64,000 nt of DNA from Candidatus Bathyarchaeia archaeon (lineage in GTDB: Archaea > Thermoproteota > CALKCG01 > B24), in the NCBI GenBank assembly GCA_038870975.1, contig JAVZJD010000001.1, positions 832,001 to 896,000 on the forward strand, written 5' to 3'. Below, piece by piece: positions 13,538-22,700 of the stretch (within the stretch, counting starts at the first letter, position 1; each line of letters opens with the position of its first letter). A model generated the notes under the pieces. That model made no database searches. It was not told the origin of the DNA and saw only the letters and a list, made by a program, of their open reading frames with translations. The translations under genes and the position numbers were made by a program.

Positions 13538-15310
13538 CTATTCTAAGCTTGCTCTAATTAAGTCTAACGCATCTGCAACAGTCTTAGTGACGTTGAAAAC
13601 CTTTGCAGCATACTTCTCGTAAACTTCTCTTCTACTTGCAAGCCTGTAAAGTCTATCCATGAATATTCTTCCACCTTCAGGATTTTTAGCATTAACAACT
13701 ATAAAGGAGTAGTATCTGAAGAAGTCGTCTCCAGGACTTTTCCTGAAACCACTCTCACTTATACGTTTAACAACATCCTTAAGTTGCTTCTCAGCAACTC
13801 TATCGCCTTCCGAAGCCCTCTTTCTAACGTAATTTAAAGTATAATCCCAAATCTCCTCAAAAACCCTTCTCTCCTCACTCCCCTCAGGGAATTCAGACAA
13901 CGTTTCAAAAAACTTAAGCTGATATACCGTAGACATTTTAAGCTTTAACCTACCTCCACATGCCTTTGAAATAGTTCGATACACCTCGACGCTCTTATCA
14001 CTACCGGAGTGGAAGTCTAAAATCGCATTGAAATGCTCAGCTATAGACGATAGCACTCTAACCCTACCCTCAAGTTCATCCAAAGAGCCCCCATAATCCT
14101 CCCTCTTACTGAAACCCACATTGGGGGCTACCAAGTCGACGGGCATACCCATCCTCCTACACTCAGAGAGACAGTAGAACAACTCTTTAGGGTCTGTAAG
14201 CTCAGGTGTTTCATCAAGTGAAAGCTCATAGCTGAAATCCCAATCAACCTTACGCTTGAAATACTCATACAATTCTCTAGACTTAAGTAGGCATAATCGG
14301 TATTTTAAAGCGATCCTCATAACTTCCTCCTCCGTAAATGATATTTCAACCGAATCCAATACATAGCGATGGTTTGGACGAATATTACGAAGTACTTCAA
14401 AGGCTTCTCCACCAAACTCCATCAGAAACCTCTCTTCAACTCTTTCAATAGGCCACTTCGATGGATCTACAAACTCGTACCTGATAAGATCAGAAGCGTC
14501 AATCGTAATACCTCTCACAAAACCCGTTTTAACAGCCTCATCGATCACTCTTCTATTGTAATCCATAGAGGCTTCCAACCCCTCCGTCTCGCCCCCCTCC
14601 ACCCGCTCTCCATGTGATATTATCCTAGCTAGAGCTCTACCAGGCTGTCTAACGATGATTAAATGGTCTATCTCAGTACCGTAATCGTCGAAACCAGCTT
14701 TAAAACACTCCAAAGCAATAGTGTTATATAGGGTTTCAGCATCCAGCCCAGTATGACCAAGCCACTCTGGATACAAGCCAGGTGGCGCATTTACGACCTC
14801 TTTAAGGGAAAACTCTCTACCCGCTGACAATTGGAAATCCGCTGAAACACCAATTTTTTTCAAAGTATTCAATAAGTGATTAAGGGTAAACAACATTCTA
14901 ACACCCAATCCTAGTCTAGGCTTTCTACCCAGGTTTTTCGGCCCAAATTCAGGTCTTTCTCTCAAAAGCCTCCTCAAATTGTCAACATTAAAATCGACTA
15001 TAGATACTAAGTAACCGTAAAATTCACCTACAATATTATCCTTGAAAACAGTAGGAGGCTCTACTCCGTTCTTCGCCAAATACAGTATTTTCTCAACTCC
15101 ACATAAATCAGTCACACAGCATAACGCATCGCCTTTAACTCTAATCGAGTCGACCATCAATTTAACTTTTTCAAAATTGCGGTTTATATGCTCTATTATC
15201 TCTCTCACTTCCACTGTTAGACCAGCCCTCAAAACCCCGGATGCATCGACAAGTCTACACAGTTCTTCCAATTCACTCTTGAGAGCATCCTCCACCAATT
15301 GACAAACCAA
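13538..15310 (-). CDS. uxaE: Tagaturonate/fructuronate epimerase (UxaE family)
   Basis: DHL, TIDAS, ELSLDETPELTDPKE, LVAPNVGFSKREDY.GSL and FHSGSDKS motifs of the UxaE TIM barrel. Confidence 0.7.
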   Translation of the reverse strand: MVCQLVEDALKSELEELCRLVDASGVLRAGLTVEVREIIEHINRNFEKVKLMVDSIRVKGDALCCVTDLCGVEKILYLAKNGVEPPTVFKDNIVGEFYGYLVSIVDFNVDNLRRLLRERPEFGPKNLGRKPRLGLGVRMLFTLNHLLNTLKKIGVSADFQLSAGREFSLKEVVNAPPGLYPEWLGHTGLDAETLYNTIALECFKAGFDDYGTEIDHLIIVRQPGRALARIISHGERVEGGETEGLEASMDYNRRVIDEAVKTGFVRGITIDASDLIRYEFVDPSKWPIERVEERFLMEFGGEAFEVLRNIRPNHRYVLDSVEISFTEEEVMRIALKYRLCLLKSRELYEYFKRKVDWDFSYELSLDETPELTDPKELFYCLSECRRMGMPVDLVAPNVGFSKREDYGGSLDELEGRVRVLSSIAEHFNAILDFHSGSDKSVEVYRTISKACGGRLKLKMSTVYQLKFFETLSEFPEGSEERRVFEEIWDYTLNYVRKRASEGDRVAEKQLKDVVKRISESGFRKSPGDDFFRYYSFIVVNAKNPEGGRIFMDRLYRLASRREVYEKYAAKVFNVTKTVADALDLIRASLE

Positions 15311-15407: not shown

Positions 15408-15486
15408 GGGGCCGTCGGCTAGTTTGGTCTAGGCTACGTGGCTCGGGCCCACGTGATCGCCGGTTCAAATCCGGCCGGCCCCACCA
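15408..15486 (+). tRNA. tRNA-Pro(CGG)
   Basis: Acceptor GGGGCCG/CGGCCCC-A-CCA (CCA encoded); anticodon arm CGTGG-CT CGG GC-CCACG; T-loop GTTCAAATC. Confidence 0.95.
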
Positions 15487-15641
15487 CTCTCTCATGATAA
15501 GAATCTCTTTTAAATCAAACAGTTCTCAAATGGGGGAAATATACTCGGCTTAATCTAACACCACTTAAATACGTCATAGTGGTGACCTATGTAGGTAACA
15601 TTTATATTATTTCTTAGACTTCTAATTTTCTGGTAAGTCCA

Positions 15642-16403
15642 TTGGACCGGGGTACCCCTAGCATATCTGAAATCGTCTCTACAACAATTCGAGAATTTAA
15701 TGAAACTTCTAACATGTTGAGAGACATGCGTATTAAACTGGAAAAGCTCAATCAATTGATTTCAAGCGGTCAAGTCAGCTCTCAAACAGCTGAATCCATA
15801 AGGAAAGACTACATATCTCAACTCATAGGGCTTCTAGACAAGTTTTTCAAGCTTAGATCAGAGCTGGAAGACTTAAGAGTTAGGTGTATAGTTGAAATGG
15901 AAAGGGCTAGGGTCAACGCTAGTGCAACGGGCTCTTCAGAGATAGTATCAAGACTTGAAGAACTTACGATAAGGATAGATGATGCCTTAGAAAGCCTAGA
16001 TATGGACGCCAGGCTCTTCATAGCTTCTCAGTACATCCAACACCTTAAAAGCCCAGATGTAGACCAAAGTACTTTAAAGGAGAAAAAGCTGGCATACCGT
16101 AGATTCGTCGACTCGATAATTGAAAGCTGGCTTGTAGATAAGGCAGATTTAGAATCGGAGCTATCCGATCTTGAAAGGGATGCTAACAATCTTAGGGAAC
16201 AGCTTAAAGAGCTGTGGGTTAGATTCATGGTCGGCGAGTATGACAGGGGGGAATATGATGCTAAGAGGGTTAGACTAGAGGAAGAACTTTCATCTATGAA
16301 TTCACGTATAACGGAACTTAGGAGTAGGTTGGATGCAATAGATGAGCGGATAATCGAGTTAACAAGCGTAATAGGAGCTGAGGAGGTTGAAGAAACCAGT
16401 TAA
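15642..16403 (+). CDS. Soluble coiled-coil protein with two CdvA/SHOCT-like hairpin motifs
   Basis: Heptad-rich, no TM; motifs KLEKLNQLISSGQVSSQTAESIRKDY and LKELWVRFMVGEYDRGEYDAKRVRL; no N-terminal PRC barrel. Confidence 0.7.
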   Translation: MDRGTPSISEIVSTTIREFNETSNMLRDMRIKLEKLNQLISSGQVSSQTAESIRKDYISQLIGLLDKFFKLRSELEDLRVRCIVEMERARVNASATGSSEIVSRLEELTIRIDDALESLDMDARLFIASQYIQHLKSPDVDQSTLKEKKLAYRRFVDSIIESWLVDKADLESELSDLERDANNLREQLKELWVRFMVGEYDRGEYDAKRVRLEEELSSMNSRITELRSRLDAIDERIIELTSVIGAEEVEETS

Positions 16404-19086
16404 TATTTTAATAGGAATTTTACTTCTGTCGACGCTTCTACCTGCTGCTTCTATTCTCAGCTCGGTTTTAGCCGGGTCGGAAACCAATCCAATACGAGTA
16501 TATGTTGAAACGCCTTTAAAACTCAAGTATGTTTCTGAGCCTGTTGTTTTTTCCGCTAATTTCTCCTATGGTGAGGCTGGTTTAGGCTCTCTGAGGGTTT
16601 TGGATGAGAATGGTTTTGAAATACCATATCAGATACTTGAAGCCCAATACTATCCAAACACTCAATACTACAGCTACGCTAAAATCCTAATCCTAACAGA
16701 CGTCTCAAGCAGTATGAATAGAAGCTACACACTCAAATACACACCGCAAGCTACAATCACACCAGATTATACAGAAAAGTCAGACTTGAAAGTGTTCAAA
16801 GTAGTTGTTGGAAATGAAACGCACTTAATCATTAAAAACAGCTACGTTCAAGCTGTCTTCATAGAAGGCTCTCCACTCGGTCTTTACGCTCTCTACGACC
16901 TCTCCTCAGGCTTAAATGAATCTATAGTTCCACCCTCGTGGAGCTTTGCATCGCCATGTGTAATGGTAAACAACACATGGCTCACGCCGGCCGATATGAG
17001 TAAGACAAACGTGACTATCTCAATCAACGGCTCACTTTGCGTCGAAGTCCGTGTAAAAGGCTCTTATCCTGGTGTTTTAGTTGAGAGGGTTTTCAGGTTT
17101 TACGCTAAAAGCCGCTTCTTCGACTTTGAAACAATATTCACACCCATAGGAAGCCCAACGATCACAGCCATAAGCCCATTCAACACAATGTACCGAAGAG
17201 AACTATACCAGATACTGCTATTATCAGACGGCTCTATCCTACCGTTGGCTTCGACATCTTACGTCGGATCGTTTAAAGCTGGAAATTGGTCTGCAATTAC
17301 CGGATCACATGGAGGAATATGGATAGCAATCGAACCTAGAGAAATTTTAACGCGTCTCATAATGCAGACCGATATACCAGGCTACTATATGATGACTTAC
17401 CTCGCCGACTGTATGAAACTCATTGAGGGCCAAACTTTGGCCTTTAAAGGTAGAGCTACATTACTTCATGAGCATTTTGATCTAAAAATGCTGGAGAATG
17501 AGTTTCTGAGGTTTAGAACACCCCCTATTGTCAAAGTTAAAACCCCTATGGCTTTGATTAAAGCTCAAGGACCGAGTCAGACGCTCCTAGGCAACTTTTT
17601 CACGATAGACCTAGACGTTATTGGTTTAAAGGATTTAAACGATGTGCTTTTGAATGCTTCTTATGGTTCTGGTTTGGAGTGTTTTTCTAAGGCTGTCTAC
17701 CGTAGCTCTCTACCAGCCTATAGTATTTGGACTACTCGCTGGCTATTCAGAGCTAAAGCTGAAGGCATATACAACATAGAATTCACACTAACAACATGGA
17801 ATGAAACATACACACTAATATACCCTATGAAAGTATTTCTACCTATTATAGCACCGTCCGTCAACGTAACGTTCTTCGTCTCAGATTACGATGGTGAATC
17901 CATCCAAAGAAATATCATGCTTAAGCTTGTAAACCCGGCTGGTATAACACTAAATCTCCCTATAGGCTCCTCTGGTAACGTGTCGGTTAAGATTCAAATG
18001 GGTCGGTATGAATGGTACGCATACGATGGAAATCAGACGATAGGTAAAGGCGTGGTGGAGATTTTCAGACCTGAGAATATAACTCTGAGGACTTGGCTTT
18101 ACGATTTCAACGTCGTGGTTTTAAGCACCGATGGTAGTCCATTGGCAGGTGTTTTAGCGATTCTCAAATCTCTGACTATGAATACAACAAAGGAATACGT
18201 CCGTTTATCCGGTTCAACAGGCTTAATACGGTTCAGCGACATCATAAATGGATCTTACAATCTTAAAATACTCGGATGGCAAGGCGAATTAATTGAAAAT
18301 ACAACTGTAACCATTCAGAAGGATGAGTTATACCATAGGGTAGTAGCTGAAGCTTGGGTTGTTAAAGTCCGAGTTTTAGATACAGATAGAGCCCCGGTTT
18401 TCAATGCATCTGTTTACCTACTCGATGAGAACATGACTCAGATAAAGACAGTAGAGACAGATGAGAACGGCTATGCTCTTCTAGGTGGGTTGGTTAGAGG
18501 AAACTACAGTATTAGAGTTGAATACTCAGGTGTGGTGGTCGGCTATCAGTACTTTAAAGTACCTATTGAAGGTCAAATTTTAGAAGCACCCTGTCGCATA
18601 TGTAGACTAGAAGTCATTCCTGTCGATCCGTGGAATAATCCTCTGATAGGATCGGAAGTTACTATATCGTTTAGACCAACACCTTACACATATCAGACGT
18701 TCAGCGGGGTTTTCAAGGATCCTGAAAAGCCAATATCCCTTTTGTTGCCTGAAGGTTCTTCATGCACTATTAGGGCCTTGAGCGGCCTGTATGAAGGTTC
18801 TTCAGATATAGTCGTTAGAAGGTCTACTAGGCTTGTCTTAAACACATCTATAAGAATGTCAGCTGTATTCATGCCTGGGTTGACGGTCTTCTTCTGGATA
18901 TTCGTGGTGTATAGTTGGCGGAGGAGGATTAGAGTCTTCTCGGTTGAGGTTTTAAAATTGAAGAGCATGCTGTCTAAACTCGAGGAACTCTACCGTAGTG
19001 GTGAAGTAGATGCCCCACTCTACGGAAAACTTAAAAGAGAGTATGAGGATAGGTTACATAAGCTTCTCGAAGGTGGTTCATCTTGA
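16387..19086 (+). CDS. Large single-pass surface glycoprotein: signal peptide, beta-supersandwich plus carboxypeptidase-regulatory-like Ig repeats, TM, cytoplasmic SHOCT/CdvA-like tail
   Basis: Signal peptide MKKPVNILIGILLL...; repeats of V.V.D.DG.P...A.V.L......TD.NG.....L..G.Y...; about 20 N-x-S/T sequons (manual count); TM AVFMPGLTVFFWIFVVYSW-RRR; tail LSKLEELYRSGEVDAPLYGKLKREY. Confidence 0.75.
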   Translation: MKKPVNILIGILLLSTLLPAASILSSVLAGSETNPIRVYVETPLKLKYVSEPVVFSANFSYGEAGLGSLRVLDENGFEIPYQILEAQYYPNTQYYSYAKILILTDVSSSMNRSYTLKYTPQATITPDYTEKSDLKVFKVVVGNETHLIIKNSYVQAVFIEGSPLGLYALYDLSSGLNESIVPPSWSFASPCVMVNNTWLTPADMSKTNVTISINGSLCVEVRVKGSYPGVLVERVFRFYAKSRFFDFETIFTPIGSPTITAISPFNTMYRRELYQILLLSDGSILPLASTSYVGSFKAGNWSAITGSHGGIWIAIEPREILTRLIMQTDIPGYYMMTYLADCMKLIEGQTLAFKGRATLLHEHFDLKMLENEFLRFRTPPIVKVKTPMALIKAQGPSQTLLGNFFTIDLDVIGLKDLNDVLLNASYGSGLECFSKAVYRSSLPAYSIWTTRWLFRAKAEGIYNIEFTLTTWNETYTLIYPMKVFLPIIAPSVNVTFFVSDYDGESIQRNIMLKLVNPAGITLNLPIGSSGNVSVKIQMGRYEWYAYDGNQTIGKGVVEIFRPENITLRTWLYDFNVVVLSTDGSPLAGVLAILKSLTMNTTKEYVRLSGSTGLIRFSDIINGSYNLKILGWQGELIENTTVTIQKDELYHRVVAEAWVVKVRVLDTDRAPVFNASVYLLDENMTQIKTVETDENGYALLGGLVRGNYSIRVEYSGVVVGYQYFKVPIEGQILEAPCRICRLEVIPVDPWNNPLIGSEVTISFRPTPYTYQTFSGVFKDPEKPISLLLPEGSSCTIRALSGLYEGSSDIVVRRSTRLVLNTSIRMSAVFMPGLTVFFWIFVVYSWRRRIRVFSVEVLKLKSMLSKLEELYRSGEVDAPLYGKLKREYEDRLHKLLEGGSS

Positions 19087-22000
19087 AAATGGTGAAAAAC
19101 GCTATTTTTCTACTTCTCCTTTTAACTCTTACACAGGTCTACGGATTTAATCTACCCGTGAAAGCCCAACAAACATCTGCAACGTCAACACCATATGTTA
19201 AATATACTTTAATAACATATTTCATGGACTATTTAACAAACTCTCCAGAGCCACGTTTAAACGTCACTTTGGTTTTAAACGGTTATACTGTAAAAGGTTT
19301 AACTGACGACTTCGGCTCTTTAAAATCCTCTTTTAATGCTTCGAGAGATTTAGCCAACGTTATTCTATTGAATAGTCTATCAGTATATGGTAATTTTACA
19401 GTCGTAAAAATTCAAGACTACATGATGGAATACTTAAGATACGATGTTACATACTCAAGAAACACAATAACCTACAGCGGTTTAGAAGTAAGGCCGACAA
19501 TAGTGACTGCAGAGAAGGAAATACTACTGTACTACTACATATACACGTTGAAGAGTAGATTCGTCAATGTAAGCGATTTAGACGTTTCAACGATGGAAAT
19601 TCTACCAAACGGTGAAGTGCAATTCAGAAGGGATAAAATGGTTTTAGACGCTAGACCAGCCGTACCCGTAAATAGACAGTTGAGTAGATATGAAAGCCTA
19701 TACCTATTCCCAATAAACTACACGGTCACAGTCAGAGTGAGAATCTTCAGGTTCAGGTTCTTACCTGAAACGTATCCAGTTAAAGTATTCGTTACTGAAA
19801 ACACATCCTACGTTAACGTTATGGGTCCGGTTTTACACTTCAGAATAAACGAGACAATATCACCTCTGATAGAGAGGATAGATACTCTGAAAACCCTAGG
19901 ACTTCCAATGGTAGATGAGGAAAGGCTTGTTACAAAAATAGTCAATCAGAACACCAACATACTTCAGCTGATTGAAAATCGGAGTTACGATTCAGCGTTA
20001 ACTCAACTGAGATTCCTAGCTAAAAAGATATCAAATCTCCAATCCAATCTGTCAAATCTCAATGCGTCTTTAATGTTATCATGTGTAATAGTTATAGCAT
20101 TCATATACGCATTTTCATCACTTACTTCCACTTTAATAACGGACGACGCGAGGAAGAAATTCTTGTTGAAATTCATACTATATTTCACGCTGTTCTTCAT
20201 CTTCCTTGTATCCCATAATGAATTTAAAATAGCATTATCAATACTTTCATCCAACTTCCTACTTACAGATATTAAATATTTAGACAATTTCACAGTCCTA
20301 GTTATAGGTTCAACCCTCGGCAGTCTAGGTATTCTAATACCAACATTAATATCTCTATATTCTCCACCAATCATAAGTTTAAGCCTAGATCTAAGCATAA
20401 GAGACGTAAAAAGACATCTGACAAGATCAATCCTAACAATCATAGCATTCTCTCTCATAATTGCATCAGTCTTAGCAGTATTCAAAATATCCTACAGTCA
20501 CATTTTAACTGAGAAAACAATTCAGACGTCCTTCAAAACAGACGTAATAGGTCTACAGTCAACTCAGGAAAATATAATAGTTAAAAACGATTTAATCTTC
20601 ATAAAATCCATGGAATGGGTAAATACAACATACTACGTTAAATCACTCTATGATACTATTACAATAGGTCCATTGTCAGGGTTCACTGCTATAAGATTGG
20701 TTTCCCCGAGCTCTGGACTCCTAGATCAGAGGCTTGACATAATTGGTGTGGACCCTGTTTTCCTAAACGACTACTTCAAGTTCTCTCTAAATATTGTAAG
20801 AGGTAGCTATATTTCTGGGAATGAAAGTGCAATTCTAGTGCCTTCTTCATTAAGCAACTCTTTAAGGCTCTCTGAAAAAGTCCGTGTTAGATTCGTAATA
20901 GTGAGTAATATTGCCAATAACTTGGTAGACGTCGCCGAGTACGACTTAGGCGACTTCATAGTTAAAGGCTTCTTCAATCCAGACTCCGTTGAAGAAGTTA
21001 AACTTCCAGACGGTTCTCCGCTGATAGAGTATCCATATAGGACGATAATAGTCTCTGAGTCTCTCCTTCCAGACTCTATTGACGCCCGTAGGTTGAGAAT
21101 AACAGTACCTAGGCTCTCGCTGGGGATTTCGCAAAGTGAGCCCTATTATATAGATATTTTCAAAGTTAAGCATGCTTTTATAGTTCCAGAACCAAAATTC
21201 CACGTGGACGTCTATGAAAAGGCTAGAGAACTTCTAGACCTTACAGGATGTAGAGTCTTCGCGTATTCAAATGGGGTATGTAAGACATTTGAAGAACTCT
21301 ACATTCTGAACATAGTCGGCTTTTCATCGATTATTCCACCTATTCTCATAGTGACTTCAATAATAGTTCTAACCATGAACTCTATAATCTACGAGAGGCG
21401 TAGGGAAATATGGACTCTAGCTGTTGTAGGAGGTAATCCACGTTCTATAACAAATATGTTTCTAATGGAAGCCCTCATAACAGGACTCCTATCTACAGCG
21501 ATAGGATATTTATTCTACACTGGCTTCTACTTGACGTCTGGCGTTCTCGCCCCGTTGGTAAGTAACTGGTACCCTGAATTATTCAACATATTTACTGAGA
21601 TGAAAATGGCTTCAGGCTTTGAGCTGACGTCTATTTTAGTAATAGTGCTCGTAGGATTAGGTGTCCCACTACTTGGAAGCTATATTCCATGCGTTAAAGC
21701 TCAAGGGCTAACCCTGCTTGGTAGAAGCCCTAGACGAAACATAGGTGCCGACGTGCGTAGACGTGGCGACACGGCTGAGTATGTGCTTCCAGTTAGAGCC
21801 ACACCGTTAGACGGTGAAGCACTATACACATATTTAAAGGACAACTTCTTCACACGTGCCTTCCAAGTTAGAAAGCTCTCTGGAAACGCCTACCAAGATG
21901 GGACATTCGACTTCAAATTCACATTCCAGTTTAGAAACGTGCTCACAGAATGTGTACTCAGAGGTGTTAGAAGAGGAGATACCATATATCCAATCTTGGA

Positions 22001-22700
22001 ATTCCCAGCCGAATATTCTGATGCCATGGACCTTCACAAGTTCATATATGAGCTTGAGAAGACTACGCTTAACTATCCGTCGTGGAGGGAGAGACGTATA
22101 AGATTAGACATAGTCAGAGTTCAGCCTGTGACCAGAGTCAGAACCGTAGATGACGTTCTAAGAGACGTTAAAGTCATAAGAGAGCAGTTGCACGTAGTTA
22201 CAAGTAAGCTTAAGACCATAGAGAAGCTTAAGGCTACAACCCCATCTGAGCTTTTAGCAGAGTACGAGGCTAAATATGCTGCTCAAGCCGATAGACTCAA
22301 TAAGGCTATAAAGCGGCTTGGATTGGAACTTGAACCGTTGTATGAACAGCTCAACAGTGAAGTTCAAAAACTTAATACAGAAATCGAAAAGCTCAACATA
22401 GCTTATAAACTAGGAGAAATGTCTGAGGAAGATTATAAGACTTCATCGGAGCCTCTGAAGACTAGGCTTAACGAGCTTACGAGAAAGCTTGAAGATATAC
22501 GCTTCGTATTAACCCAGCTTAAAATGCCTAAAGTCACAATGCCAAGTATTAGAGCACCTGCGGCTAGAAGAGCTGCAAGACGTAAGCCAGCTGAAGAAGC
22601 ACCGGGCCTCATGTACTGTCCATACTGTGGAAGTACAAACCTCACTAAAACGCCGAGCGGTTCAATAGTATGCGGTAGATGCCGTAGAAAACTCCGTTAA
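19083..22700 (+). CDS. Giant FtsX/MacB-family ABC permease with C-terminal CdvA-like coiled coil and Zn ribbon
   Basis: Signal peptide; TM block; MacB-type RDVKRHLTRSILTIIA; extracellular domain (IIGVDP...IVRG...ILVP); FtsX motif SIIYERRREIWTLAVVGGNPRSITNMFLMEA; C-terminal EKLNIAYKLGEMSEEDYK and CPYCGS...CGRC. Confidence 0.8.
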   Translation: MKMVKNAIFLLLLLTLTQVYGFNLPVKAQQTSATSTPYVKYTLITYFMDYLTNSPEPRLNVTLVLNGYTVKGLTDDFGSLKSSFNASRDLANVILLNSLSVYGNFTVVKIQDYMMEYLRYDVTYSRNTITYSGLEVRPTIVTAEKEILLYYYIYTLKSRFVNVSDLDVSTMEILPNGEVQFRRDKMVLDARPAVPVNRQLSRYESLYLFPINYTVTVRVRIFRFRFLPETYPVKVFVTENTSYVNVMGPVLHFRINETISPLIERIDTLKTLGLPMVDEERLVTKIVNQNTNILQLIENRSYDSALTQLRFLAKKISNLQSNLSNLNASLMLSCVIVIAFIYAFSSLTSTLITDDARKKFLLKFILYFTLFFIFLVSHNEFKIALSILSSNFLLTDIKYLDNFTVLVIGSTLGSLGILIPTLISLYSPPIISLSLDLSIRDVKRHLTRSILTIIAFSLIIASVLAVFKISYSHILTEKTIQTSFKTDVIGLQSTQENIIVKNDLIFIKSMEWVNTTYYVKSLYDTITIGPLSGFTAIRLVSPSSGLLDQRLDIIGVDPVFLNDYFKFSLNIVRGSYISGNESAILVPSSLSNSLRLSEKVRVRFVIVSNIANNLVDVAEYDLGDFIVKGFFNPDSVEEVKLPDGSPLIEYPYRTIIVSESLLPDSIDARRLRITVPRLSLGISQSEPYYIDIFKVKHAFIVPEPKFHVDVYEKARELLDLTGCRVFAYSNGVCKTFEELYILNIVGFSSIIPPILIVTSIIVLTMNSIIYERRREIWTLAVVGGNPRSITNMFLMEALITGLLSTAIGYLFYTGFYLTSGVLAPLVSNWYPELFNIFTEMKMASGFELTSILVIVLVGLGVPLLGSYIPCVKAQGLTLLGRSPRRNIGADVRRRGDTAEYVLPVRATPLDGEALYTYLKDNFFTRAFQVRKLSGNAYQDGTFDFKFTFQFRNVLTECVLRGVRRGDTIYPILEFPAEYSDAMDLHKFIYELEKTTLNYPSWRERRIRLDIVRVQPVTRVRTVDDVLRDVKVIREQLHVVTSKLKTIEKLKATTPSELLAEYEAKYAAQADRLNKAIKRLGLELEPLYEQLNSEVQKLNTEIEKLNIAYKLGEMSEEDYKTSSEPLKTRLNELTRKLEDIRFVLTQLKMPKVTMPSIRAPAARRAARRKPAEEAPGLMYCPYCGSTNLTKTPSGSIVCGRCRRKLR

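Follow-up and report, generated by a model that had tools for sequence, protein, structure and literature searches.

Introduction

To date, CdvA has been regarded as a soluble scaffold specific to cell division, and proteins of the FtsX/MacB fold are thought to need an ATPase. The Bathyarchaeia are an abundant and largely uncultured sediment lineage, and their cell envelope is essentially unknown. Here we describe a three-gene operon of a Candidatus Bathyarchaeia archaeon in which these two protein types meet. The operon occupies positions 15642-22700 of a 64,000-nucleotide stretch of contig JAVZJD010000001.1 (assembly GCA_038870975.1), hereafter called the window (G000:C1:832001-896000), in a genome of 1.85 Mb that consists of two contigs, C1 and C2. 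Gene 1 encodes a soluble coiled-coil protein, gene 2 a surface glycoprotein with a short cytoplasmic tail, and gene 3 a giant FtsX-fold membrane protein that ends in a CdvA coiled coil. The three products probably form one complex that is clipped together beneath the membrane by helical hairpins of the CdvA type. Unless another locus is named, coordinates are positions in the window, and all features of the three genes lie on the + strand.

The closest described protein is CdvA itself (Pfam PF18822; S. islandicus structures 9s9g, 9s9h and 9s9i, PMC12818579). Residues 1022-1147 of gene 3 form the same three-helix coiled coil with both hairpin turns, gene 1 and the gene 2 tail have single hairpins of the two CdvA types, and the predicted contact between gene 1 and gene 2 falls on the positions of the CdvA longitudinal polymerisation interface. 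The arrangement of the domain is different, however, as it is fused to a membrane protein in gene 3, cut to a 56-aa tail in gene 2 and spread over 250 aa in gene 1. SHOCT-like bi-helical domains are predicted modules that assemble disparate proteins into sub-membrane complexes (PMC11237479). The hairpins of the trio resemble them in the short helix-turn-helix pattern L..L...G.[IV][ST/D]...[YF], in their location after transmembrane (TM) segments or at protein ends and in the proposed assembly role, but their scores are higher with CdvA and with one another. Makarova et al. (2024; PMC10936438) reported extra CdvA-like proteins of Bathyarchaea and Thermoproteales, which are soluble and have Glu-rich tails and N-terminal Zn ribbons. 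Those proteins share with the trio the helical domains outside the cdv locus, the same lineages and, in some cases, Zn ribbons, whereas neither an FtsX fusion nor a three-gene envelope operon is described there. We found no published description of a CdvA-FtsX fusion or of the three-gene operon in the literature.

Three further systems bear comparison. Members of the type VII ATP-binding cassette (ABC) systems (MacB, LolCE, FtsEX, BceAB) have, like gene 3, an FtsX TM module that follows a TM helix and a large extracytoplasmic domain, as well as an extracytoplasmic operon partner. In contrast, trio contexts are without an ABC ATPase, and gene 3 has an extra N-terminal outside domain, three more TM helices and a long cytoplasmic extension, of which the extension has no counterpart known in the characterised members. 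In the ESCRT-I core (Vps23/Vps28/Vps37; 2caz, 2p22, 2f66, 6vme), three different proteins likewise each give a helical hairpin. Hairpin 2 of gene 3 superposes on the Vps23/TSG101-type hairpin with a Z of 9.2-10 and a root-mean-square deviation (rmsd) of 1.4-2.8 over 60-67 residues, although this Z is in a range common for helical hairpins and concerns one superposed hairpin; moreover, the trio has no UEV or Vps28 domain. With enzymes of the PL26/GH38 type, gene 2 shares the accessory beta-sandwich/supersandwich but not the catalytic domain. The system may work like a sub-membrane complex assembled by SHOCT/CdvA hairpins and attached to an FtsX-fold membrane protein.

A CdvA coiled coil at the end of an FtsX-fold protein

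Gene 3 (19083..22700) encodes an FtsX/MacB-type membrane protein of 1205 aa (1203 aa if translation starts at the ATG at 19089), with a signal peptide and a cytoplasmic extension of ~330-340 aa past the last TM helix. The extension begins with an alpha/beta domain (residues 887-1012, 21741..22118), followed by a CdvA-like three-helix coiled-coil domain (residues 1022-1147, 22146..22523) with turns at ~1050-1054 and 1110-1114 (LGEMS). It ends, after a basic linker, in a four-cysteine zinc ribbon (CPYC...CGRC; 22617..22697) that is found in some lineages of the family only.

The coiled coil was identified by profile and by structure. Aligned with 16 CdvA sequences, the C-terminus of gene 3 reached 96.8% in hhalign (E 3e-10), with an alignment that spans both hairpins. 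An AlphaFold2 (AF2) model of the cytoplasmic region, based on a 27-sequence alignment, has a mean predicted local distance difference test score (pLDDT) of 83.6 and contains the alpha/beta domain, helices at 143-170, 176-230 and 236-268, the GE turn at 231-235 and then the Zn ribbon (model numbering). In an exhaustive structural search with this model (VIA, 48,161 chains), the best match was the CdvA filament of S. islandicus (9s9g_A), with a Z of 13.7 and an rmsd of 3.4 Å over 128 residues; the next rows, ESCRT-I Vps23 hairpins, were clearly lower at Z 9.6-10. CdvA 9s9g was also first in the PDB profile search (E 0.003), and a Foldseek search of the cytoplasmic model against the PDB gave no match at E <= 0.001. 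Against the Pfam CdvA family, gene 3 stands at the threshold, with 27.6 bits for the whole protein and 32.5 bits in the six-frame search at a cut-off of 30. These results identify the gene 3 C-terminus as a genuine coiled-coil domain of CdvA.

The alpha/beta domain has the order b-b-a-b-b-b-b-a-a and an AF2 pLDDT of ~90. In a profile search of 1.84 billion representatives it was restricted to the gene 3 family, Foldseek returned weak BamC-N, KA1, SRPBCC and PsbP-like rows only, and the ESM Atlas feature search gave no usable match. Among the same 1.84 billion representatives, the complete cytoplasmic region occurs in ~24 clusters, always at the C-terminus, in proteins of ~1040-1180 aa and in one of 1675 aa. 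The zinc ribbon might be a DNA-binding one of the Cren7 type (PMC5906684). Another membrane protein of the window genome (G000:C1:445598-445717, -) ends in a basic linker and a CPYC..CPYC zinc ribbon that is 35% identical to that of gene 3 over 46 aligned residues. A cytoplasmic C-terminal Zn ribbon thus looks like a common appendage of membrane proteins in this genome.

Conserved hairpins in all three proteins

The sequence-only reading of the window had placed the same helical hairpin motif on the cytoplasmic side of every protein of the trio, and this was borne out. The four instances that it quoted are present, RRR directly follows the TM helix of gene 2 in agreement with a positive-inside arrangement, and the sequons lie in the predicted outside parts (13 of 14 in gene 3 and 21 of 21 in gene 2). 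A regular expression of the motif matched four times in all frames of at least 100 aa in the 1.85-Mb genome, each time in the trio, as compared with 0.05 matches in shuffles. The expression was written post hoc from the trio instances, and conservation is the independent test. In orthologues of 20-35% identity, the three hairpin motifs are invariant or nearly so and are among the best-conserved parts of each protein: KELWVRFMVGE in gene 1 (segment ..LKELWVRFMVGEYD..), SML.KLE.LY..GE[VI]....Y.KLK.EY in the gene 2 tail and LGE[ILM]SEEEY in gene 3. The window genome's own CdvA carries the same turn motif twice.

Gene 1 (15642..16403) encodes a soluble, all-helical coiled-coil protein of 253 aa with two CdvA-type hairpins and no TM segment. 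Hairpin 1 (residues ~29-70, 15726..15851, LEKLNQLISSGQVS...) is conserved, belongs to the CdvA hairpin-1 type and matches the gene 2 tail, with 90% in hhalign (E 1.4e-6). Hairpin 2 (residues ~170-240, 16149..16361) contains the invariant KELWVRFMVGEYD and the predicted contact residues 186-199 (16197-16238); it aligns with hairpin 2 of gene 3 at 59%. Scans of gene 1, whole and as cut-out motifs, against Pfam and NCBIfam returned generic coiled-coil noise only (SMC, Trimer_CC, GvpG and others). The gene 1 orthologue of genome G035 matches Pfam CdvA directly (E 1.1e-4), and that of locus L060 has a precomputed weak CdvA match.

A SHOCT identity of the hairpins was not supported. Only the gene 2 tail matched the 28-position SHOCT profile (PF09851), and it did so below threshold: it scored 13.2 bits where the cut-off is 27, and 10.3 bits when the genome was searched. 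Gene 1 and gene 3 gave no match. In Pfam, the tail scores E 0.075 with SHOCT, E 0.095 with CdvA and E 0.12 with GvpG. A gas vesicle reading through GvpG (PF05120) was rejected: the hairpins reach 13-24 bits at a cut-off of 30.6, and no gvp genes lie nearby.

Apart from orthologues, whole-genome searches with the gene 1 profile mostly returned short hairpin proteins of the same type that stand alone, C-termini of gene 3, tails of gene 2 and one CdvA-like protein, and no coiled-coil frames of SMC or Rad50 size were among the matches. A paralogue search of the window genome turned up no further copy of either gene 1 or gene 2. The standalone hairpin protein that the profile detects in this genome is SHOCT/GvpG-like. 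It is a 72-aa single-hairpin protein (LKKRYESGELDEEAYKRS; G000:C2:308681-308899, -, which is L056:2681-2899) that scores 24-25 bits with SHOCT and E 4.8e-7 with the gene 1 profile. Its gene lies directly upstream of that of a 97-aa multi-TM protein, and many relatives keep it in frames that measure 73-104 aa, or 124 aa in one case. The pair may be a minimal two-gene form of the same hairpin-to-membrane idea.

A predicted interface of gene 1 with the gene 2 tail

Complex prediction for gene 1 and the gene 2 tail gave an ipSAE of 0.64, as compared with 0.00 for the best of three controls. The ipSAE mark is reached by 58 of 80 solved complexes and by 2 of 110 mismatched pairs, counts that are rough here since our own alignments were used. 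The contacts agreed 100% between runs, and the partner pLDDT was at least 83. The predicted interface is formed by gene 1 residues 186, 189-190, 193-194 and 196-199 and by tail residues 14, 17-19, 21-22, 25, 30-31, 35, 38-39 and 43, and it coincides with the invariant motifs. The sequence-only reading had all three proteins co-assemble through their hairpins; of this claim, the pairing of gene 1 with the gene 2 tail is supported by prediction, with a confident interface and clean controls, and it is the one pair for which this can be said.

Six CdvA residues, A90, L94, I100, I149, M153 and I156, hold its filaments together, and their change to Asp abolishes polymerisation (PMC12818579). The same study reproduced the CdvA filaments with AF2. 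We mapped these positions onto the trio through a gap-free block of the CdvA alignment and the hhalign registers, anchored on the G-E turn. K189, V193 and M196 of gene 1 are the equivalents of I149, M153 and I156, and K21, L25 and V31 of the tail are the equivalents of A90, L94 and I100. Hairpin 1 of gene 1 has the same triad as the tail (K35, L39 and V45), which could let gene 1 assemble with itself head to tail or bind to gene 3 as well.

Distribution of the trio

The trio is found in the same order with different flanking genes in genus g1 (the window, L013 and L015), in family f4 (L018-L020), in G035 (L023/L022) and at L057, L060, L062 and L064. These make at least seven genomic contexts and include metagenome-assembled genomes (MAGs) labelled Thermoprotei and Thermoproteales. 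At L059 there is a partial pair of gene 2 and gene 3. In 60 relatives from 37 genera, orthologues of gene 1 were found in 4 genera and those of gene 3 in the same 4, as compared with 29 for CdvA. The contexts and the shared genera support the co-conservation that had been expected of the three genes. Some members of the families carry the NCBI automatic names 'CdvA-like protein' or 'FtsX-like permease family protein'. The trio is a conserved, self-contained module of Bathyarchaeia and other uncultured Thermoproteota that is rare among relatives.

In genus g2, gene 1 and gene 2 are adjacent and gene 3 is on another contig of the same genomes. In this genus and in a Thermoprotei MAG, the gene 3 orthologue is followed by a convergent second giant FtsX paralogue of ~1000-1060 aa (L016:12695-15868, -; L062:11272-14253, -), which is the orthologue of C2:760113-763304 in the window genome.

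The distribution bears on whether the motif means anything for assembly. It could be a generic feature of helical hairpins, such as SHOCT/GvpG-like caps, in which case the surface protein, the permease and the coiled-coil protein would be mere neighbours without a specific assembly. The shortness of the motif, the weak overlap of the SHOCT, GvpG and CdvA profiles on it and the presence of standalone 72-aa hairpin proteins in the same genome would fit such a view. It is nevertheless very improbable in our judgement, as gene order and co-occurrence are kept across the contexts above, the motifs rank with the most conserved parts of each protein, and the predicted interface falls exactly on them while the controls score zero.

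Relation to the Cdv/ESCRT system

None of the three proteins has a match to the PRC barrel, and gene 1 aligns to CdvA over the coiled coil only. Comparison with the CdvA alignment likewise found no E3B-like PxPV C-terminus in any of the three. What the trio shares with CdvA by homology is the coiled coil through which CdvA polymerises; the E3B peptide, which binds ESCRT-III, is not part of it. The cdvA and cdvB genes are located at C1:247-248 kb and the operon at C1:847-855 kb, ~600 kb apart. With no PRC barrel, no E3B peptide and no place at the cdv locus, the members of the trio are not CdvA orthologues.

Positioning of ESCRT was among the roles that the sequence-only reading had offered. 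Because the partner-binding parts are missing, the cdv locus is distant and the distribution differs from that of CdvA (4 versus 29 of 37 genera), this role is speculation. In its fuller form, the trio would be an accessory of the Cdv machinery, with CdvA-like domains that recruit CdvB (ESCRT-III) or co-polymerise with CdvA and so mark, at a landmark of the envelope, sites where cells divide, vesicles bud or the membrane is repaired. A similarity between CdvA and the steadiness box has been pointed out (PMC10936438), and the second-best structural matches of gene 3 are the steadiness-box hairpins of ESCRT-I Vps23. Together with the true CdvA domain in gene 3 and the presence of cdvA and cdvB in the genome, this gives the accessory role some appeal. 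The absence of those CdvA parts that contact partners, the distance from cdvA/cdvB and the much narrower distribution than that of CdvA make it a long shot. In G035, an extra CdvA-like protein (C15:127629-127979, -; a 221-aa frame, PF18822 27.5 bits) is encoded ~4 kb upstream of the gene 1 orthologue, and this genome has six CdvA-profile matches in total.

An FtsX module without an ATPase in its operon

According to its predicted topology, gene 3 begins with outside domain 1 (residues 27-329, 19161..20069), which has 10 sequons and no Pfam match, and continues with three extra TM helices (residues 330-435, 20070..20387). TM4 (residues 449-467) and outside domain 2 (residues 468-743) follow at 20427..21311, in the position of the MacB/FtsX extracytoplasmic domain. 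This outside loop of 275 aa carries sequons and is placed as in a MacB unit, but has no Pfam MacB_PCD match. The three-TM C-terminal FtsX module (residues 754-872, 21312..21698) matches PF02687 with E 3.4e-11 and 43.7 bits at a cut-off of 25.5, and with 49.4 bits in the genome search.

No ABC ATPase gene is located in or beside the operon, the nearest being a DrrA-type ATPase with an ABC-2 permease ~20 kb away, and none was found in any of the orthologous trio contexts examined. The observation of the sequence-only reading on this point therefore holds beyond the window. The window genome has 32 ABC ATPase matches, those of MacB type beside small FtsX permeases, and for none of these permeases is the closest ABC ATPase match more than a few kb away. 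The genome also encodes two further giant FtsX proteins (1062 aa, and 1566 aa with an M28 peptidase domain). They are likewise without an ATPase, and no CdvA-domain match was found at their loci. The larger one (G000:C1:544598-549298, -, which is L055:8598-13298) has its M28 peptidase domain outside and stands beside DUF6785/OPT-like transporters, with no adjacent MacB-type ATPase. Giant FtsX proteins of 1000-1800 aa number up to ~10 per genome in many relatives. FtsX modules without an ATPase therefore seem to serve generally, in this lineage, to anchor extracellular domains in the membrane.

Alternatively, the operon could encode a type VII ABC transporter or mechanotransducer of the ordinary kind (MacB/LolCE/FtsEX-like), with its ATPase gene at another place in the genome, gene 2 as extracytoplasmic client or partner and the coiled coils in regulation or dimerisation only. 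Gene 3 does have a bona fide FtsX domain in the layout of TM helix, large outside loop and three TM helices, it keeps the FtsX-typical cytoplasmic loop motif, and the genome offers 32 ABC ATPase matches, some beside small FtsX permeases. Yet those small permeases each have their ATPase match close by, whereas no independent context of the trio has one in or beside it. Moreover, the last TM helix of gene 3 is directly followed by a family-specific 130-aa domain and the CdvA domain. We consider such a transporter unlikely, although it deserves to be kept in mind.

Gene 2 and a possible link to glycans

Gene 2 (16387..19086) encodes a type I surface glycoprotein of 899 aa with a signal peptide, 21 sequons outside, one TM helix and a cytoplasmic hairpin tail. 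Its N-terminal all-beta module (residues 30-490, 16474..17856) is like the non-catalytic beta-sandwich/supersandwich half of PL26 lyase and GH38/GH2/OpgG enzymes. The AF2 model of the module has a pLDDT of 91.3 and a predicted template-modelling score (pTM) of 0.87. Foldseek returned matches at E 6e-9 to 7e-11, with a TMq of 0.54-0.56 to the PL26 exo-rhamnogalacturonan lyase 5xqg. The module spans only ~30% of the matched enzymes (TMt 0.29-0.31), which corresponds to the non-catalytic half. The ESM Atlas lead for this head was PcRGLX_1st/2nd, and no catalytic Pfam family matched gene 2. The stalk is an Ig-like region (~490-820) that includes a CarboxypepD_reg/Ig-like domain (residues 659-717, 18361..18537; PF13620 E 5.7e-12). 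The TM anchor, assigned by hydropathy, is at residues 824-842 (18856..18912), and the conserved 56-aa tail with its single hairpin SMLSKLEELYRSGEVDAPLYGKLKREY is encoded at 18916..19083.

The size of gene 2 varies. It has 899 aa in the window as compared with 1522-1559 aa in congeners and family f4 (L013:3392-7963, L015:9048-13616, L018:9889-14568), where a 630-aa head module is tandemly duplicated with ~57-62% identity between the copies. The window form consists of the signal peptide joined to the second head module, from which an in-frame loss of one module may be deduced. Single-module forms are found in the more distant operons L057, L060, L062 and L064. A member of the gene 3 family with 1675 aa (L063:3229-8256, ENA ERZ27249342) stands without gene 1 and gene 2, and its enlarged outside region has a partial-profile match to Glyco_hydro_15 (GH15) of 33.4 bits at a cut-off of 22. 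The PL26/GH38-type head, the module duplication and the GH15 match in the 1675-aa variant together suggest a glycan-related surface function for the system.

Operon layout and neighbourhood

Three co-oriented open reading frames fill positions 15642-22700. The use of the upstream TTG as the start of gene 1 is supported by F19, which is invariant in the alignment of distant orthologues. A TATA-like AT-rich box, TTTATATTAT (15600..15609), lies ~33-42 nt upstream of this TTG and, on position alone, is a candidate archaeal promoter for the operon. The last 17 nt of gene 1 are also the first of gene 2, which is directly preceded by GGAG..GAGGAGG. For gene 3 there are two candidate starts, a TTG at 19083, which overlaps the stop codon of gene 2, and an ATG at 19089, which is 2 nt past that stop. 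The ATG is preceded by GAAGGTGG and is where the ESM Atlas record begins; we regard it as at least as likely as the TTG. Of the layout claimed in the sequence-only reading, the 17-nt overlap stands, and the 4-nt TTGA overlap between gene 2 and gene 3 holds only with the TTG start. The genes are tightly packed whichever start is used, and orthologous operons show overlaps of 4-34 nt or gaps of at most 10 nt.

Upstream, a tRNA-Pro (CGG) gene (15408-15486, +) lies in the divergent intergenic region between a UxaE-like gene (13538-15310, -) and gene 1, and the TATA-like box is ~115 nt downstream of this tRNA gene. Genes for GINS, primase and PCNA are just downstream of the operon.

Discussion

The explanation that best accounts for the whole, and to which we give a probability of about 0.58, is an envelope-spanning complex clipped together by hairpins, in which an ATPase-less FtsX protein takes part in placing a glycan-binding surface protein. 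The trio would be a membrane-spanning complex held under the membrane by CdvA-type helical hairpins. Gene 2 would contribute a C-terminally anchored, heavily glycosylated surface protein whose head is like non-catalytic carbohydrate-binding supersandwich modules. Gene 3 would contribute an FtsX/MacB-fold protein with two outside domains, a cytoplasmic alpha/beta domain and a complete CdvA coiled coil, and gene 1 a soluble adaptor with two hairpins. In hairpin 2 of gene 1, the helix that leads into the GE turn would dock on the gene 2 tail hairpin via the CdvA head-to-tail faces, and hairpin 1 of gene 1 could dock on the hairpin-2 face of gene 3 or on a second gene 1. Beneath the membrane, the three proteins would thereby assemble into a hetero-oligomer or a short co-polymer. 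The FtsX module would need no dedicated ABC ATPase; it would anchor the complex in the membrane or couple conformations passively, rather than act as an ATP-driven motor. The likely job of the complex would be to anchor, cluster or position the glycan-binding surface protein.

Several observations weigh against this explanation. Coiled coils inflate profile scores, and both gene 1 and the gene 2 tail resemble CdvA only weakly, at 52-66% (gene 1 hairpin 2 to CdvA hairpin 2, 52%, E 1.4e-4; tail to CdvA hairpin 1, 66%, E 5.8e-5). The CdvA-type hairpin proposed in the sequence-only reading is thus firm for gene 3, with the hhalign and Z values given above and the motif in the genome's own CdvA, and weak for the other two proteins. 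The support for contacts comes from in silico prediction of one of the three possible pairs, gene 1 with the gene 2 tail, and this predicted interface could partly be a memory of the public CdvA filament contact, the structures of which were released in January 2026. Judged from the mapped positions, the CdvA-like hydrophobic longitudinal face is only partly kept in gene 3: its hairpin-2 face is E1102/I1106/K1109, with E1102 and K1109 at the equivalents of I149 and I156, and the I100 equivalent is T. Since gene 3 is unlinked from the other two genes in genus g2, the partnership with it may not be obligate. In addition, the FtsX cytoplasmic loop motif ERRREIWTLAVVGG of gene 3 is intact, and an ATPase may act on gene 3 in trans, as MacB-type ATPases exist in the genome.

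A bolder form would make the trio a membrane-nucleated CdvA-type co-polymer. The gene 2 tail and the gene 3 C-terminus would then bear complementary longitudinal faces, which gene 1 would link or extend as a sub-membrane filament. We regard this as rather doubtful. Were it true, the trio would be the first scaffold of the CdvA/ESCRT-I-steadiness-box type wired to a receptor-like glycoprotein and an ATPase-less FtsX transducer. It would represent a primitive outside-in device of TACK archaea that connects a receptor to a sub-membrane scaffold, and it might link CdvA, ESCRT-I cores and membrane cargo in evolution.

For the hairpin-clipped complex, the meaning lies in the redistribution of the CdvA polymerising domain over an FtsX-fold protein, a glycoprotein tail and a soluble adaptor within one ATPase-less operon. 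The six named interface positions and the small soluble domains offer handles on this system. If the predicted contacts hold, the longitudinal interface of CdvA would be a reusable clip for hetero-complexes under archaeal membranes, and FtsX modules could also act as ATP-independent anchors or transducers.

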